Source of the DNA: Gemmatimonadota bacterium
GTDB taxonomy: Bacteria; Gemmatimonadota; Gemmatimonadetes; Palauibacterales; KS3-K002
Length of the DNA: 64,000 nucleotides
Direction: 5' to 3'
Assembly (NCBI GenBank): GCA_039588075.1
Contig: JBDHAL010000001.1
Coordinates: forward strand, 7,027 to 71,026
Shown: piece by piece, positions 31,066-41,096 of the stretch
Position numbering within the stretch: the first letter of the stretch is position 1
Layout: the number at the start of each line of letters is the position of its first letter
The notes under the pieces: model-generated
What the model was told of the DNA's origin: nothing
The model's database searches: none
What the model saw: the letters and a program-made list of their open reading frames with translations, nothing else
Translations under genes and position numbers: made by a program

Positions 31066-32064
31066 TTGCGAACCGCGCTACCCGGCTCTCGACGAGGCGG
31101 TCGAACAGCACTTAATATCGGACGCACTTTGACGAACCGACAGTCGGGCAACCCGAGCTACTCGCGGACCTATCTCGCCCTGGCCGCCCTGATCTTCATC
31201 TGGGCCTCGAATTTCTCGGTGGTCAAGTTCGCGCTCCGCGACATGTCGCCGCTCGCCTTCAACGGCATGCGGTTCGCCGTCGCATCGACGGTGCTCTGGG
31301 TGACCGTGAGGGTCGGCGGTATTACGACCACCATCCCTCGGCGCCACTGGCCCGCGTTGATCGGACTGGGCGTGCTCGGCAACACCGTCTACCAGATCCT
31401 CTTCATCTACGGAATCGACTGGACGCTCGCCGGCAACGCCAGCCTGATGCTGGCGGCCACTCCGATCTTCACCACGCTGCTCTCAGTGATGTTCCGCCAG
31501 GAACGAATCGCCCTCCTGGCCTGGTCGGGCGTGTCGATCTCCGTTGTCGGCATCGCCCTCGTCGTATGGGGCGGCACCCAGGCGGTGAGCTTCAGCTCCG
31601 AAACGGTGCGTGGCGACCTCACCGTGCTCTGCGCCGCGGTCGCCTGGTCCGCCTACACGGTGGGCGCGAACCCGCTGGTGCGCCGTTACGGCGCTCTGCC
31701 GGTCACCGCCGTGACGATGTGGGTCGGCGGCGTGGGACTCCTGGCCGCCTCCGTGCCCGCCTTCCTGGCGCAGGACTGGTCGGCCGTACGACCGGTCTCG
31801 TGGCTCGCGCTCATCTATAGCGGCGCCTTCGCCATCGCCCTGGCCTACTTCATCTGGTATTACAGCATCCATCAGATCGGAACCACGCGAACCGCGGTCT
31901 ACTCCAACTTCATCCCGGTCGTCGCGCTGGTCATCGCGTGGCTGGCGCTGGGCGAGCTGCCCACCTGGCTGCAGATAGTGGGCGCAGCGGGCATCGTCGC
32001 GGGTACGATCCTGGTCCGGCTCGGCAGGATAGAGAGGTCCGCCATCGGTCCTCCGGCCGAGTAA
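31066..32064 (+). CDS. DMT superfamily (EamA-like) transporter
   Basis: Two EamA repeats with 10 TM helices. An alternative TTG start exists at 31129. Confidence 0.75.
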   Translation: MRTALPGSRRGGRTALNIGRTLTNRQSGNPSYSRTYLALAALIFIWASNFSVVKFALRDMSPLAFNGMRFAVASTVLWVTVRVGGITTTIPRRHWPALIGLGVLGNTVYQILFIYGIDWTLAGNASLMLAATPIFTTLLSVMFRQERIALLAWSGVSISVVGIALVVWGGTQAVSFSSETVRGDLTVLCAAVAWSAYTVGANPLVRRYGALPVTAVTMWVGGVGLLAASVPAFLAQDWSAVRPVSWLALIYSGAFAIALAYFIWYYSIHQIGTTRTAVYSNFIPVVALVIAWLALGELPTWLQIVGAAGIVAGTILVRLGRIERSAIGPPAE

Positions 32065-32140
32065 GCGCGGTGGCCCGTCCCGCCTACTTGCCCGTCCGGC
32101 GCGACATGGAGCGAGGTGGCCCCTGTCGCACCCCGCACTC
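32060..32140. repeat. GC-rich modular repeat unit (TTGCCCGTCCGGCGCGACATGGAGCGAG...) overlapping the luxC 3' end
   Basis: Same unit as at 37230-37265, 39880-39910 and 40675-40710. It encodes the last roughly 18 aa (PPRSMSRRTGK) of the LuxC-like ORF. Confidence 0.5.
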
Positions 32141-33571
32141 ACCACGCGTCACATCAAGATCAACGAACCGGACCAAGTCCTGGAATTGAAACCGCCCATC
32201 GTGGTGCCAGTGCGGTGCGGGCCAGGCCGCCTCGCCGATGGGAACGATCCGCGTGGCTCCGGCCGCGCCGAGCTGAGCCGCGAGAACCGCCACCTCGTCC
32301 GGCGTCGCTGCCACCGCCACGGTCTGAAGCCGGTGCCCCACCCGCTCCAACGCCGACAGCGCTTCCGACAGCTCGCCGACCGGGCGGACGTGTATGACCC
32401 GATTGAGCGGCGACGGCTCGAACTCCGGACGCTCTTCGATGATCACCGTCCACTCGGTTCCGCGCTGGCCGGCCAGCACAGTCGCCCCGCGGATCTCCGC
32501 CTGCGCCCGCAACTGGTGGATCAGAGTCGATTCGCCGGGCGTCATCGTGCCGCGCGGGATCTCGGTCGAGAGCCGCTCCAGGGCCGCGGCGAGCAGGTTC
32601 GCGAACTCGAGCGGGCTCACCGCACCCCCGTCTTCCACGTAGATGGCGTGCGGCGAAACGCAGCCCTGCTGGTCGAAGGTCACGACATCGAGAGCGGCGT
32701 CGCGTGCTAGACTCTCCGTGTCGCCGGCGCCGAGCCCGTTGCGGGAGATCAGCGCCGCACCAACGCGGTTGGGGTAGGCGATGAAACGGACCTGGGGCGG
32801 TACGTGGCAACCGATTCGGCCGATCGTTTCGTCGCTACCGTAGGCGATCACCACCTCGGCCTCCGAGAACGCCACAGCCTCCAGATCGTCCGATCCGCCC
32901 GGCCAATAGGTGACGCCCAGACAACCGGCCAGCTCCGGGTCCTCTTCCGCCAGCGCCCGGGCGAAACAGACGGCGACGTACGGTTCGCCGGCCGCCGTCT
33001 TGCCGAAGCCTGCCGATTTCACGCAGAGCGAGCGGATCAGGCTACTCACCGACACGCCGGGGATATTGCCGCTGAACACGTGCACCGTGAGCGAGGGGCC
33101 GAATGCGCGTTCGAGGCCGCCGGATGTGCGGACGCGGAAATCATCGAGAACGTCGAGGCCTTTGAATTCGTCCTCGAGCGCACCGCGCAGCGCGCCGGCC
33201 GTCCAACCGGCTCCCATCCGCTCCAACCCGATCTCGATCATCTCCCGAGAGTACCCGGTGAGTCCGGGCAACACCTCGAGGAGTTCGGCATGCAGCGGTT
33301 CGCCCTGCCGGACGAGGCGCCGAGATGCGCGTTCGATCGTATCGAGGAGCTCGGCCACAGGTCGTTCGGCCAAGACCTCGGCTCGCTTCCTGCGCATGTC
33401 GATCAGCACGTCTCGCAGGGCGTGCGGCGTCAGCGTGGGAACGCGCAGCGGGATGTGGCCCGGGCCGAATGCGCGCTCGGCGACCTCGAAGCCCGGCCCG
33501 CGGAGCGCGTCGGTCGGTCGGTCGTGGAGCGCCGGTAACCAGAAACCGTCTAGCGTTGTGCCGTCAGCCAT
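32084..33571 (-). CDS. LuxC-like long-chain acyl-CoA/acyl-protein reductase
   Basis: LuxC family architecture (aldehyde-dehydrogenase-like fold with a conserved Cys region). It overlaps the upstream luxE-like gene by 22 nt. Confidence 0.75.
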   Translation of the reverse strand: MADGTTLDGFWLPALHDRPTDALRGPGFEVAERAFGPGHIPLRVPTLTPHALRDVLIDMRRKRAEVLAERPVAELLDTIERASRRLVRQGEPLHAELLEVLPGLTGYSREMIEIGLERMGAGWTAGALRGALEDEFKGLDVLDDFRVRTSGGLERAFGPSLTVHVFSGNIPGVSVSSLIRSLCVKSAGFGKTAAGEPYVAVCFARALAEEDPELAGCLGVTYWPGGSDDLEAVAFSEAEVVIAYGSDETIGRIGCHVPPQVRFIAYPNRVGAALISRNGLGAGDTESLARDAALDVVTFDQQGCVSPHAIYVEDGGAVSPLEFANLLAAALERLSTEIPRGTMTPGESTLIHQLRAQAEIRGATVLAGQRGTEWTVIIEERPEFEPSPLNRVIHVRPVGELSEALSALERVGHRLQTVAVAATPDEVAVLAAQLGAAGATRIVPIGEAAWPAPHWHHDGRFQFQDLVRFVDLDVTRGECGVRQGPPRSMSRRTGK

Positions 33572-34662
33572 TGGTCCATTGCGATCGAGCAGCCGCGCAA
33601 CTCGGCTCCAGCGGCTCGCCCCAGTATCTCGAAGCCGCCAGCGCCGGCGACTCCGAGGTCGTCTGTTTGGATCGCCATCACCGAGTCGAAGTTAGCCAGA
33701 TCGAAGTGCCGCAGCACACCTACCCGACCCTCGGGAAGCAGCTCGAGCGTCTCGGCATCCACGACCTGCGTGCGCACCCAGGGCGGAACGACCTTGTAGC
33801 GATACCCCGGCGAACGCCCGAGCGATCGCTCCCTCAATACATTGTCATAGAACTGTGAGCACATCTCAGTCATCCCGTACTCGGCCACGCAGTACAGCTC
33901 CGACAATCCCAATCGATCGCGCAACATCGAGTACAGCTGATCTCTCGGAATCTCCCTGCGATAGCGCTTGAAGCCCCCCGTCTCCATCGCCCGCGAGCCC
34001 GCCGGCAACCTGAAGCGCCGGCCGCTCCCTTCCATCGTCTCCAACAGGTGAGCATACGCCGCCGCCGTCCCCAGCAACATCGCAGGTACACCTCGCGCCT
34101 CCACCAACTCGAGCGCCGAACCCAACCGCTCGAGGCTCAGCCCTTCCCCGTCGACGAAGTAGGCGCTATCCGGCGCCCCGTACTCTCGACGCACCAGCTC
34201 GAACATCCAGCTGAGCGACGAGTCGGGCGCCAGCTCGGGTGACGGCCCGAGGATCAGCGTCCGCAAGCCCGTCACACCGGGAAGCATGTGCTCTCGGAAA
34301 TTGGGAAGCGCGGCAGCCCTGTAAAAGCCCAGGTCGAGCACGTGGTGGGCGCCTCTGCGCTCAGGGCCCTGGCTCGTTCCGCTCGTCCGGAATACGATCT
34401 CCGCCGCGTCGGCAGCGCCGCAGACCAGGGCCGCCTCCTTGAACGCGGCCGTGGGTACCGCCGGAATCTCGGACCAACCCCCCACCCTCTCCGGCGTTCC
34501 GCCACGCCCCTCGCAGAACCGGCGATACGGCTCGTTCTCCGCGAATTGACGCTCGTAGACCTTCAGCGCCAGCTCCTCGAAGCTCCCGCCCTCGGGAGCC
34601 CGCAAGCCGCGCCCGATATACCCCAGGACCTCACCGCGAAGACCGTCGACCGCTGTCATCAA
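33550..34662 (-). CDS. LuxE-like acyl-protein synthetase
   Basis: LuxE-family adenylating enzyme, sitting immediately upstream of the LuxC-like gene in the same operon. Confidence 0.75.
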   Translation of the reverse strand: MMTAVDGLRGEVLGYIGRGLRAPEGGSFEELALKVYERQFAENEPYRRFCEGRGGTPERVGGWSEIPAVPTAAFKEAALVCGAADAAEIVFRTSGTSQGPERRGAHHVLDLGFYRAAALPNFREHMLPGVTGLRTLILGPSPELAPDSSLSWMFELVRREYGAPDSAYFVDGEGLSLERLGSALELVEARGVPAMLLGTAAAYAHLLETMEGSGRRFRLPAGSRAMETGGFKRYRREIPRDQLYSMLRDRLGLSELYCVAEYGMTEMCSQFYDNVLRERSLGRSPGYRYKVVPPWVRTQVVDAETLELLPEGRVGVLRHFDLANFDSVMAIQTDDLGVAGAGGFEILGRAAGAELRGCSIAMDQWLTAQR

Positions 34663-34764: not shown

Positions 34765-35709
34765 CTATTTGTCTTCCTCCTCCTCTTCTTCTTCCTCCTC
34801 CTCCTCCTCTTCTTCTTCTTCCTCCTCCTCCTCCTCTTCTTCTTCCTCCTCCTCCTCCTCCTCCTCCTCTTCTTCCTCTTCTTCTTCTTCTTCGCCTACA
34901 TCCTCATCCTCTTCTTCTTCCTCTTCTTCCTCTTCCTTCTTTTTCGCCTTGGCCTTCGCCGCTTCTTCACTAGCCGCCGCCGCCGCCATTGCCGCCGCCG
35001 CAGCCGCCGCAGCCTCTGGATCAAACAACAGCGCGTCGAAGTCATCCACCGCCAACTCATCGGTGGGCGCCTTGATCTCCACCCCCTTGTCGGCAGCGCG
35101 CCGCAGCTCGTCCGGCGTGAGCATGGCGGCGAAAACGACCGGTGTCCAGCCGGCGGCGCGAACGCCCTCGGTCGCCTTGCCCTCGCGAACTCGTTCGGCC
35201 GAATCCTCATCGCCCAAGTCGGCGAGTTTCTCAGCCAGGAACTCGCGGAAATCGGTCCGCTCGACGTACTGGCTCATGAGAAGGAGGTGCTGCACGGCGA
35301 GCAACTGCAGCCCGGATTCGACGGAGGCCGAGCAGTAGGCATCGATGTGCTCGCGGGCGATCTCGAGGAAGCCCTTTCCCAAGCAGAGCCAAGCGAGCGT
35401 GCGGCGCGTGCGGATTACCTCAGGGACGACCCGGATGATCTTGCGGCAGACCGCCATGGCGTTGTCGTACTCGCCGGACTGCAGGTAGGCGTCGATGGCA
35501 TTGCCGTAGCGTGCAAGAGCGCTCTGGCGGTCCCCTTTGACGAGGTAGAGATCGCCGGCACGGTTGAGCAGGCGCGCCGCCTCGTAGCCGTGCCCCAGCC
35601 TCTCCAGCTCCTTCTCTATCCGCTCGAGATCATCGCTGGCCATGACCGGAGTGGAAGCGTCCGGATCCTGGTCGGCGCCGCCGAATACTTTCTTAAAGAA
35701 ACCGAGCAT
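34765..35709 (-). CDS. TPR-like protein with an about 70-residue poly-Glu C-terminal tail
   Basis: N-terminal TPR-like helical repeats. The C-terminal tail reads EEEEEEEEEDEDVGEEEE...EEEDK. Confidence 0.7.
   Translation of the reverse strand: MLGFFKKVFGGADQDPDASTPVMASDDLERIEKELERLGHGYEAARLLNRAGDLYLVKGDRQSALARYGNAIDAYLQSGEYDNAMAVCRKIIRVVPEVIRTRRTLAWLCLGKGFLEIAREHIDAYCSASVESGLQLLAVQHLLLMSQYVERTDFREFLAEKLADLGDEDSAERVREGKATEGVRAAGWTPVVFAAMLTPDELRRAADKGVEIKAPTDELAVDDFDALLFDPEAAAAAAAAMAAAAASEEAAKAKAKKKEEEEEEEEEDEDVGEEEEEEEEEEEEEEEEEEEEEEEEEEEEEEEEEEEEEEEEDK
34768..34930. repeat. (CTC/CTT)n trinucleotide microsatellite (GAG/GAA on the coding strand) encoding the poly-Glu tail
   Basis: About 160 bp of cttcctcctcctc repeats. 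Confidence 0.75.
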
Positions 35710-35877: not shown

Positions 35878-36099
35878 ATGCACGTAAGCATCGAATACTG
35901 CGTCGTTTGAAACTACGAACCCCGTGCCGCCAGTTTGGCGGACATTCTCCGGTCACGGTATGACGGGATCGAGGTCGAGCTCATCGAGAGCGGGGGCGGC
36001 GCCTTTGAAGTACGCCATGAAGGTGAGCTAGTTTACTCGAAGCTCCGCGAAGGGCGCTTCCCGAACGACGAGGAGATCTTCGAACTCCTGGGGGGCTGA
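35878..36099 (+). CDS. selW: SelW/Rdx-family selenoprotein with an in-frame UGA (Sec) codon at 35908-35910
   Basis: Translates as MHVSIEYCVV-U-NYEPRAASLADILRS...GGGAFEVRHEGELVYSKLREGRFPNDEEIFELLGG, with the CxxU redox motif and SelW-like blocks. A GGGAGA RBS precedes the start. The hairpin ccgtg-ccgcc-agttt-ggcgg...cacgg lies 8-50 nt after the UGA and is a SECIS candidate. Confidence 0.75.
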
Positions 36100-36975: not shown

Positions 36976-37289
36976 TTAACCCGGTTCGGGCGTTCGCGAA
37001 AGACGCGGCGGTGGTGCGGGATGGGGCGGGGTCATCTCGCTCCAGGTCGCGCCGGACGGGCGGACGGGCGGGACGGGCAAACCGCGCTCCAACTTGCGCT
37101 CGACGACCCCCGCCCCATCCCTTGAGGCCGCGGTAATGACTGCAAGTTCGAACTTTGTTACCGCGAATAGGAGGGCGCAGCGGGGACCCTCGAGCGGATA
37201 TTTGGAGCGCCCCGGCCCGTCACGCGCTCCAGCCCGACCGGCGCGACATGGAGCGAGAGGGTCCCCGTTGTGCCCGACCGCCAACCGCG
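36976..37289. repeat. composite array of GC-rich modular hairpin repeats, just 3' of dnaE2
   Basis: Contains a GGGATGGGGCGGGG unit, its reverse complement CCCCCGCCCCATCCC, the hairpin gcggtaatgactgcaagttcgaactttgttaccgc and the unit GCGCGACATGGAGCGAGAGGGTCCCCG. Confidence 0.6.

Positions 37290-41096
<3,807 letters not shown>

Follow-up and report, generated by a model that had tools for sequence, protein, structure and literature searches.

A gene-encoded poly-glutamate tail of unusual length on a TPR-like protein from the Gemmatimonadota

The window (the whole 64,000-nucleotide stretch of DNA that was analysed) carries on its minus strand a 314-aa open reading frame (ORF), the 3' end of which is formed, in frame, by an array of GAG and GAA (GAR) codons. 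Tandem Repeats Finder (TRF) reported this array as a period-3 repeat at 34775-34937 (54.3 copies, plus-strand consensus TCC), overlaid by a higher-order period (27 nt x 6). The gene and its parts are listed below.

34765..35709, minus strand: whole gene, encoding the 314-aa TPR-like protein with its poly-Glu tail (ORF list, translation, 111 homologues)
35677..35709, minus strand: amphipathic motif at the N-terminus (MLGFFKKVFGG, residues 1-11), similar to the membrane-targeting sequence of MinD (family consensus)
35014..35655, minus strand: conserved all-helical core, residues 19-232, with TPR-like repeats and a small C-terminal helical module ending LLFDPE
34945..35013, minus strand: Ala-rich linker A8-M-A5-SEEAAKAKA, residues 233-255 (alignment, AF2)
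34936..34944, minus strand: KKK, residues 256-258 (translation)
34909..34935, minus strand: first Glu run, E9, residues 259-267 (translation, run count)
34894..34908, minus strand: interruption DEDVG, residues 268-272 (translation)
34774..34893, minus strand: second Glu run, E40, residues 273-312 (translation, runs test, TRF)
34768..34773, minus strand: terminal DK, residues 313-314 (translation)
34765-34767, minus strand: stop codon TAG (translation)

By codon count, the protein therefore ends ...AAKAKA-KKK-E9-DEDVG-E40-DK-stop. A preliminary description of this DNA had proposed a coding GAG/GAA microsatellite that gives a TPR-like protein a C-terminal poly-Glu tail, and TRF, translation and homology all agree with it. 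Its lengths needed correction: the long run, given as E58, is E40, and the tail, given as about 70 residues, has an acidic part of 56 residues (259-314), or 82 residues if counted from the last conserved core motif. Across the whole tail, Glu is encoded by 26 GAG and 24 GAA codons; E40 comprises 22 GAG and 18 GAA, arranged in homocodon blocks. The sense strand over E40 is a 122-nt pure purine tract, and the corresponding mRNA is without predicted structure (MFE 0 kcal/mol). In all frames of the window, Glu runs of at least eight residues occur solely in this tail. Plus-strand ORFs across the tract, which would encode poly-Ser and poly-Pro/Leu, were rejected as antisense or off-frame artefacts without homologue support. 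A promoter and terminator scan around the gene returned nothing that exceeded shuffled sequences.

A core-only query (residues 1-232) retrieved 111 homologues, with E-values down to 1e-115, and all those with an organism name were Gemmatimonadota MAGs. Similarly, a genome scan yielded 49 loci, all from Gemmatimonadota or Longimicrobiales, with Ca. Kutchimonas denitrificans among them. The closest relative in the GTDB genome scan shared 78% identity, and the metagenome scan likewise peaked at 78%; an exact-sequence look-up of the window protein returned no record, and no same-species copy was found in the metagenome and GTDB genome collections. An alignment of 55 sequences contains 25 invariant columns, including the block GEYDNAMAVCRKIIRVVPEVIRTRRTLAWLCLGKGFLEIAREHI, and the invariant core residues comprise N49, R50, R89, K90, R93, R100, R102 and K112. 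When the family profile was compared with 1.84 billion cluster representatives, 113 matched at E <=1e-30 (725 at E <=1e-10); most representatives of the family measure 190-235 aa and are thus without a long tail. GC3 of the gene (0.76) matches that of coding frames in the neighbouring genes. On these comparisons, the window protein is a member of a strongly conserved, uncharacterised family, the named members of which are all Gemmatimonadota.

The core is predicted to form stacked antiparallel helix pairs in a right-handed superhelix, as in TPR-type folds (AF2 mean pLDDT 83; core >90; tail residues 269-290 <50). Fold-search matches were TPR-like, at 8-17% identity, and included Sti1/Hop, kinesin light chain and sNASP. 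The window protein itself misses the Pfam TPR gathering score (best TPR_2, 20.6 bits vs a cut-off of 27). Several homologues have precomputed TPR matches (PF07719, PF13424 and PF14559), and one orthologue (L062) lies above the TPR_19 threshold. The earlier label of "TPR-like protein" is hence supported by both the fold matches and the TPR matches of homologues. NCBIfam is without any family for the core, and when PDB sequences were searched with the family profile, weak consensus-TPR matches alone were returned. In some Longimicrobiales MAGs (L076 5824-8172, L077 and L078), the family core forms the N-terminal part of a multi-TPR protein of ~780 aa. A Pfam match to Ribosomal_60s (29.8 bits vs a cut-off of 28.1), confined to residues 211-272 and to profile positions 22-84 of 88, was rejected as compositional, reflecting an Ala-rich hinge followed by an acidic stretch. 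Identity as a P1/P2 stalk protein was also rejected, given that the N-terminal 230 residues belong to the TPR-like family and that the protein ends in EEDK.

The family also has a characteristic N-terminus, with the consensus M-x-GFLKR-x-FGG (MLGFFKKVFGG in the window), which was found in 81/108 homologues and reads MLGFLKRLFGG in three. The membrane-targeting sequence (MTS) of Escherichia coli MinD is KGFLKRLFGG (PMC5471200), to which the N-termini of these three homologues are identical across nine residues. The LGFFKKVFGG of the window shows the alternating bulky hydrophobic and K/R residues of MinD-type motifs. AF2 predicted a short helix at residues 4-9, at low confidence, and the hydrophobic moment of the N-terminal 10-mer did not discriminate. 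Peripheral membrane binding is suggested because the N-terminus nearly copies the MinD MTS, and the window protein is probably held at the membrane in this manner, through a MinD-like amphipathic N-terminal helix.

In the close clade, gene order around the locus is conserved: a DnaE-like gene, a gene for a 145-aa membrane protein and a SelW/T/H selenoprotein gene face, in the opposite orientation, the TPR gene, LuxE-like and LuxC-like genes and EamA. The selenoprotein gene (35878..36099, plus strand) is of the SelW/T/H type, with an in-frame TGA at codon 11 and the motif CVVU, and its product matches NCBIfam SelTWH when U is read as C (E = 1.5e-28). As described previously, the TPR gene is divergent from it; the two opposed genes are separated by a 168-bp spacer. 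This adjacency reflects close-clade synteny and is absent in more distant family members, and it thus provides no functional link. A selenoprotein orthologue was cut to 54 aa by gene callers (Rdx). A CCGCC/GGCGG hairpin follows the selenoprotein TGA, with a fold no better than shuffles (z = -0.77), and Rfam gave no match over the whole window.

Directly downstream of the TPR gene, on the same strand, are genes for a LuxE-like acyl-protein synthetase and a LuxC-like acyl-CoA reductase (32084-34662, minus strand; ORFs overlapping by 22 nt). Both score above Pfam thresholds but far under NCBIfam equivalog cut-offs, and are therefore not considered true lux genes; they may be a fatty-aldehyde-forming pair. 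Synteny of the pair with the TPR gene holds across the close clade, and in some distant loci the two genes lie <5 kb from it. In Longimicrobiales-type relatives (35-41% identity), the family gene is found directly upstream of alternative complex III (ACIII) genes at nine loci (among L062-L075; e.g., actA, actB and actC at L062 5830-11836). The products of this operon are a multihaem cytochrome c7-like ActA, a 1066-aa molybdopterin/FeS ActB and an NrfD-like ActC; no ACIII genes were found in the window. Gene neighbourhood thus gave no consistent functional partner, as the SelW and TPR-LuxE-LuxC arrangement is restricted to the close clade and ACIII to Longimicrobiales. A family of dispersed GC-rich repeats of ~40-250 nt, both direct and inverted, was also noted in the window (32064-32148, 37004-37290, 38020-38090, 39686-39942 and 40598-40732), with copies in intergenic DNA. 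At least three further copies lie inside the 1268-aa DnaE-like ORF (37290..41096, minus strand), where the reading frame stays open and the translated inserts resemble "GDPLARCRAGRAEGGD" and "DDPRPI".

A comparison of the tails of orthologues had been proposed earlier, and their lengths do differ among relatives, ranging from 0 to 135 residues after the core (median 18; measured from LLFDPE, the last conserved motif). A neighbour-joining tree of cores groups strongly acidic tails (with net charges from -11 to -78) in one subclade of ~30 distinct sequences, which includes the window. Tails in this subclade open with an Ala-rich helix (AAARAQMAEIEAAAQ...) and often end in [KR]D. The A8-M-A5 linker of the window aligns as a simplified version of the AAARAQMAEIEAAAQ helix of relatives, and a helix spanning it is predicted at residues 231-266 (AF2). 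A second origin of an acidic tail is seen in P0063/P0065, and distant cluster representatives (P0215, P0247 and P0205) have long D/E/A/S-rich acidic tails that end in a basic cluster. The longest Glu run outside the window is 25 residues, in a MAG chromosome (CP070812.1, L032), followed by 16 in L053 and 14 in L003/L004/L034 (Ca. Kutchimonas denitrificans), with the rest <=10. The unusualness claimed for the tract in the preliminary description accordingly holds for the length of E40, which is exceptional within the family. All 26 runs of at least six Glu in ORFs of >=80 aa, across 660 kb of related Gemmatimonadota DNA, fall in the TPR-like family, and confinement to one family indicates that the tract is a property of the gene rather than of the genomes. 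E40 is therefore the longest instance of an acidic tail that changes fast among close relatives, unusual in length and ordinary in kind.

These comparisons also bear on whether the tail has any role. E40, and perhaps the whole acidic tail, could be a functionless by-product of slippage: it would stay acidic simply because GAR repeats give rise to further GAR repeats, and would be tolerated as an appendage at the C-terminal end of a folded protein. The tail is missing in most of the family, and tails cannot be aligned between relatives with 75-80% identical cores. The adjoining Ala-rich helix has also degenerated in the window lineage (to A8-M-A5, next to K-rich runs). Moreover, orthologue tails contain other triplet repeats, namely (AAG)n encoding K10, (GAT AAR)n encoding (DK)5-7 and (GCA GAG GAG)5 encoding (AEE)5, so that the whole tail region is a triplet-repeat hotspot in this clade. 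Coding microsatellites of these other kinds were seen at L035 (~1700-1790), the L041 tail end and the L033 tail. Nonetheless, acidic tails made of differing residues (E-rich, D/A-rich and D/E/S-rich) recur in separate branches and persist throughout the acidic-tail subclade, and the extreme C-terminal [KR]D is semi-conserved past the variable part. We therefore regard a functionless tail as the main rival reading, a real possibility though one that falls short of being probable.

A tract of this type invites the question of whether its length, or even its existence, is an expansion or collapse artefact of short-read assembly, which we consider very improbable. The GAR tract (~163 nt) exceeds a typical 150-nt read, and the exact protein and species are absent from the collections searched, which leaves no independent copy for comparison. 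However, exact repeated substrings within the tract reach no more than 35 nt, which makes every k-mer of >=36 unique in it and lets ordinary reads tile across. The frame is also intact to a DK-stop end that resembles the ends of relatives, and runs of E25 (CP070812.1), E16 and E14 occur at the same position in relatives that were assembled independently. Gross misassembly of the tract is hence unlikely, and the count of 40 is given as assembled.

Evidence for slippage comes from near-identical relatives. The contigs of L079 (GCA_041550415.1) and L053 (BHB10-38_Bin_112) share 98.7% identity over 2150 nt, and their copies of the gene differ by a single indel, of 18 nt (six GAR codons), which falls within the GAR run. 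At the protein level, P0005 and the protein of L053 agree at 282/285 positions, with a six-residue gap within the Glu run (E10 vs E16). An in-frame indel between such similar contigs demonstrates slippage directly in a sister lineage of the window, rather than at the window locus itself. As another example, L041 and P0033 have identical cores and (DK)n tracts that differ by one unit, whereas non-repetitive 25-residue tails are constant in length among relatives with 95-100% identity.

The codon composition of the window tail is consistent with the same process. GAA accounts for 48% of tail Glu codons, compared with 20% in five neighbouring genes (Fisher P = 2e-4). Codons in E40 follow the order A5 G1 A2 G8 A3 G5 A4 G5 A3 G3 A1 (A, GAA; G, GAG), which amounts to 11 runs against an expectation of 20.8 (runs test z = -3.2, permutation P = 0.001), and these blocks agree with a 24-27-nt higher-order period. 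The array thus has the form of a slippage-prone coding microsatellite, being tandem, of period 3, in frame and translated as homopeptides (E9 and E40), and it shows the homocodon blocks and deviant codon usage characteristic of a homopeptide low-complexity region (LCR). An excess of GAA together with homocodon blocks is expected as a mark of homocodon slippage or block duplication, and not of point substitution under codon-usage selection. With GAA being the rarer codon, these features suggest a mutational rather than selective origin and so favour a functionless tail; that every tract is in frame speaks against one. Classification as a phase-variable contingency locus was rejected, as the unit is 3 nt, the array lies at the 3' end of the ORF and every observed variant is in frame.

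We lean towards the reading that the tail is a disordered polyanion, the charge of which is kept while its length drifts by slippage, and which acts electrostatically on a scaffold peripheral to the membrane. One subclade of the TPR-like scaffold family would have inherited an acidic low-complexity C-terminus, and GAG/GAA homocodon blocks would have allowed it to grow and shrink in frame by replication slippage. In the window lineage, the tail would then have run away to E9 plus E40, the longest seen. Negative charge, rather than exact length, may be the retained feature, since acidic tails recur and persist even though their sequences are not alignable. How such a charge might act can be pictured in several ways: the tail may be a spacer that is repelled from an anionic membrane, or may compete intramolecularly for the cationic N-terminal helix or for basic residues that are invariant in the core (R50, R89, K90, R93, R100, R102 and K112). 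However, a picture of "basic domain plus acidic tail" would be too crude, because the core itself has a net charge of -13. Since most family members are without a tail, we infer that it is dispensable for core function, and this tail-less majority fits a functionless tail equally well.

The tail might alternatively have a specific job, for example, as a buffer of cations (Ca2+, Mg2+ or Fe), a mimic of polyphosphate or nucleic acid, a poly-D/E chaperone or an EEVD-like pseudo-ligand. The first three are of the kind that the preliminary description put forward. A pseudo-ligand would dock in the TPR groove of its own protein, either in cis (autoinhibition) or in trans (head-to-tail oligomers). 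Acidic C-terminal peptides are commonly bound by TPR grooves, and the fold matches include Sti1/Hop and kinesin light chain; the core provides invariant residues (N49 and the seven basic residues above), and many tails end in an Asp with a free carboxylate. Nonetheless, the window tail ends in DK rather than D, and AF2 gave low confidence for the tail and indicated no docking. Bulk ion effects are also unlikely, as a halophile-type acidic proteome is lacking. A salt-in halophile proteome was rejected, with the median pI of 5.5 over 43 window ORFs not showing the extreme acid shift expected. A specific job of this kind appears unlikely.

It is similarly improbable that the poly-Glu acts as a heritable electrostatic "rheostat", in which a length set by slippage would tune how strongly a phylum-specific TPR scaffold, anchored at the membrane in MinD fashion, binds the membrane or its partners, with the tail competing against the cationic N-terminal helix or the TPR groove of the same protein. 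If this were true, populations would gain a graded, reversible adjustment of a conserved cellular function.

Translation of the tail may carry a cost. Consecutive acidic residues destabilise translating E. coli ribosomes (intrinsic ribosome destabilization, IRD), which is countered when a non-acidic nascent chain occupies the exit tunnel (bioRxiv 10.1101/2021.02.02.429294). The C-terminal site of the Glu tract helps in this respect, but a run of 40 Glu would itself fill the tunnel. It is therefore conceivable, by analogy with E. coli, that the full-length product is made inefficiently and accompanied by heterogeneous truncated products.

If the assembly is correct, E40 is among the longest gene-encoded homopolymer runs that could be documented in a bacterial protein; a literature search for maximum homorepeat lengths in bacteria returned no usable number. 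The natural length series from E0 to E40 could be used to study the handling of long acidic nascent chains by bacterial ribosomes, the stability of long purine-pyrimidine GAR tracts in a genome of high GC content, and the possible modulation of membrane-peripheral scaffolds by disordered acidic tails. Arguably a more useful lead than the tail is the family itself, which joins a MinD-like N-terminal helix to a TPR core and, in Longimicrobiales, adjoins ACIII.

Several known systems share features with the window protein. At its N-terminus, the family matches the MinD MTS almost residue for residue (LGFFKKVFGG in the window; GFLKRLFGG in three relatives), although in MinD the MTS is at the C-terminus of a ParA-type ATPase, whereas here the motif, as read from sequence, is N-terminal and belongs to a TPR protein. 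Hop/Sti1 (with EEVD), kinesin light chain (with W-acidic or LFP-acidic peptides) and sNASP also pair a TPR-like superhelix with a disordered, acidic peptide; this likeness extends no further than fold class (8-17% identity), and in the window protein, the acidic peptide is homopolymeric and part of the chain that carries the superhelix. In the ribosomal stalk proteins P1/P2, too, an Ala-rich hinge leads into a C-terminal acidic stretch, but the window protein is without their N-terminal dimerisation domain and their terminal GFGLFD-type motif. Poly-Glu tails are also added post-translationally, by RimK to ribosomal protein S6 and in tubulin polyglutamylation. Both of these resemble the window tail as C-terminal poly-Glu of variable length that alters surface charge, but the window tail is encoded by the gene, has alpha-peptide bonds and changes length by mutation rather than by an enzyme. 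The closest parallel in kind is with homopeptide LCRs derived from coding microsatellites, a known phenomenon in prokaryotes (PMC6821194; PMC10120016), which, like the window tail, are in-frame with period 3, terminal, disordered, lineage-specific and slippage-driven, with codon homogeneity. The tail is thus of a kind already known in prokaryotes and is unusual mainly by its length, with 40 identical residues compared with at most 25 elsewhere in its own family, and with no run of six or more Glu outside that family in 660 kb of related DNA.
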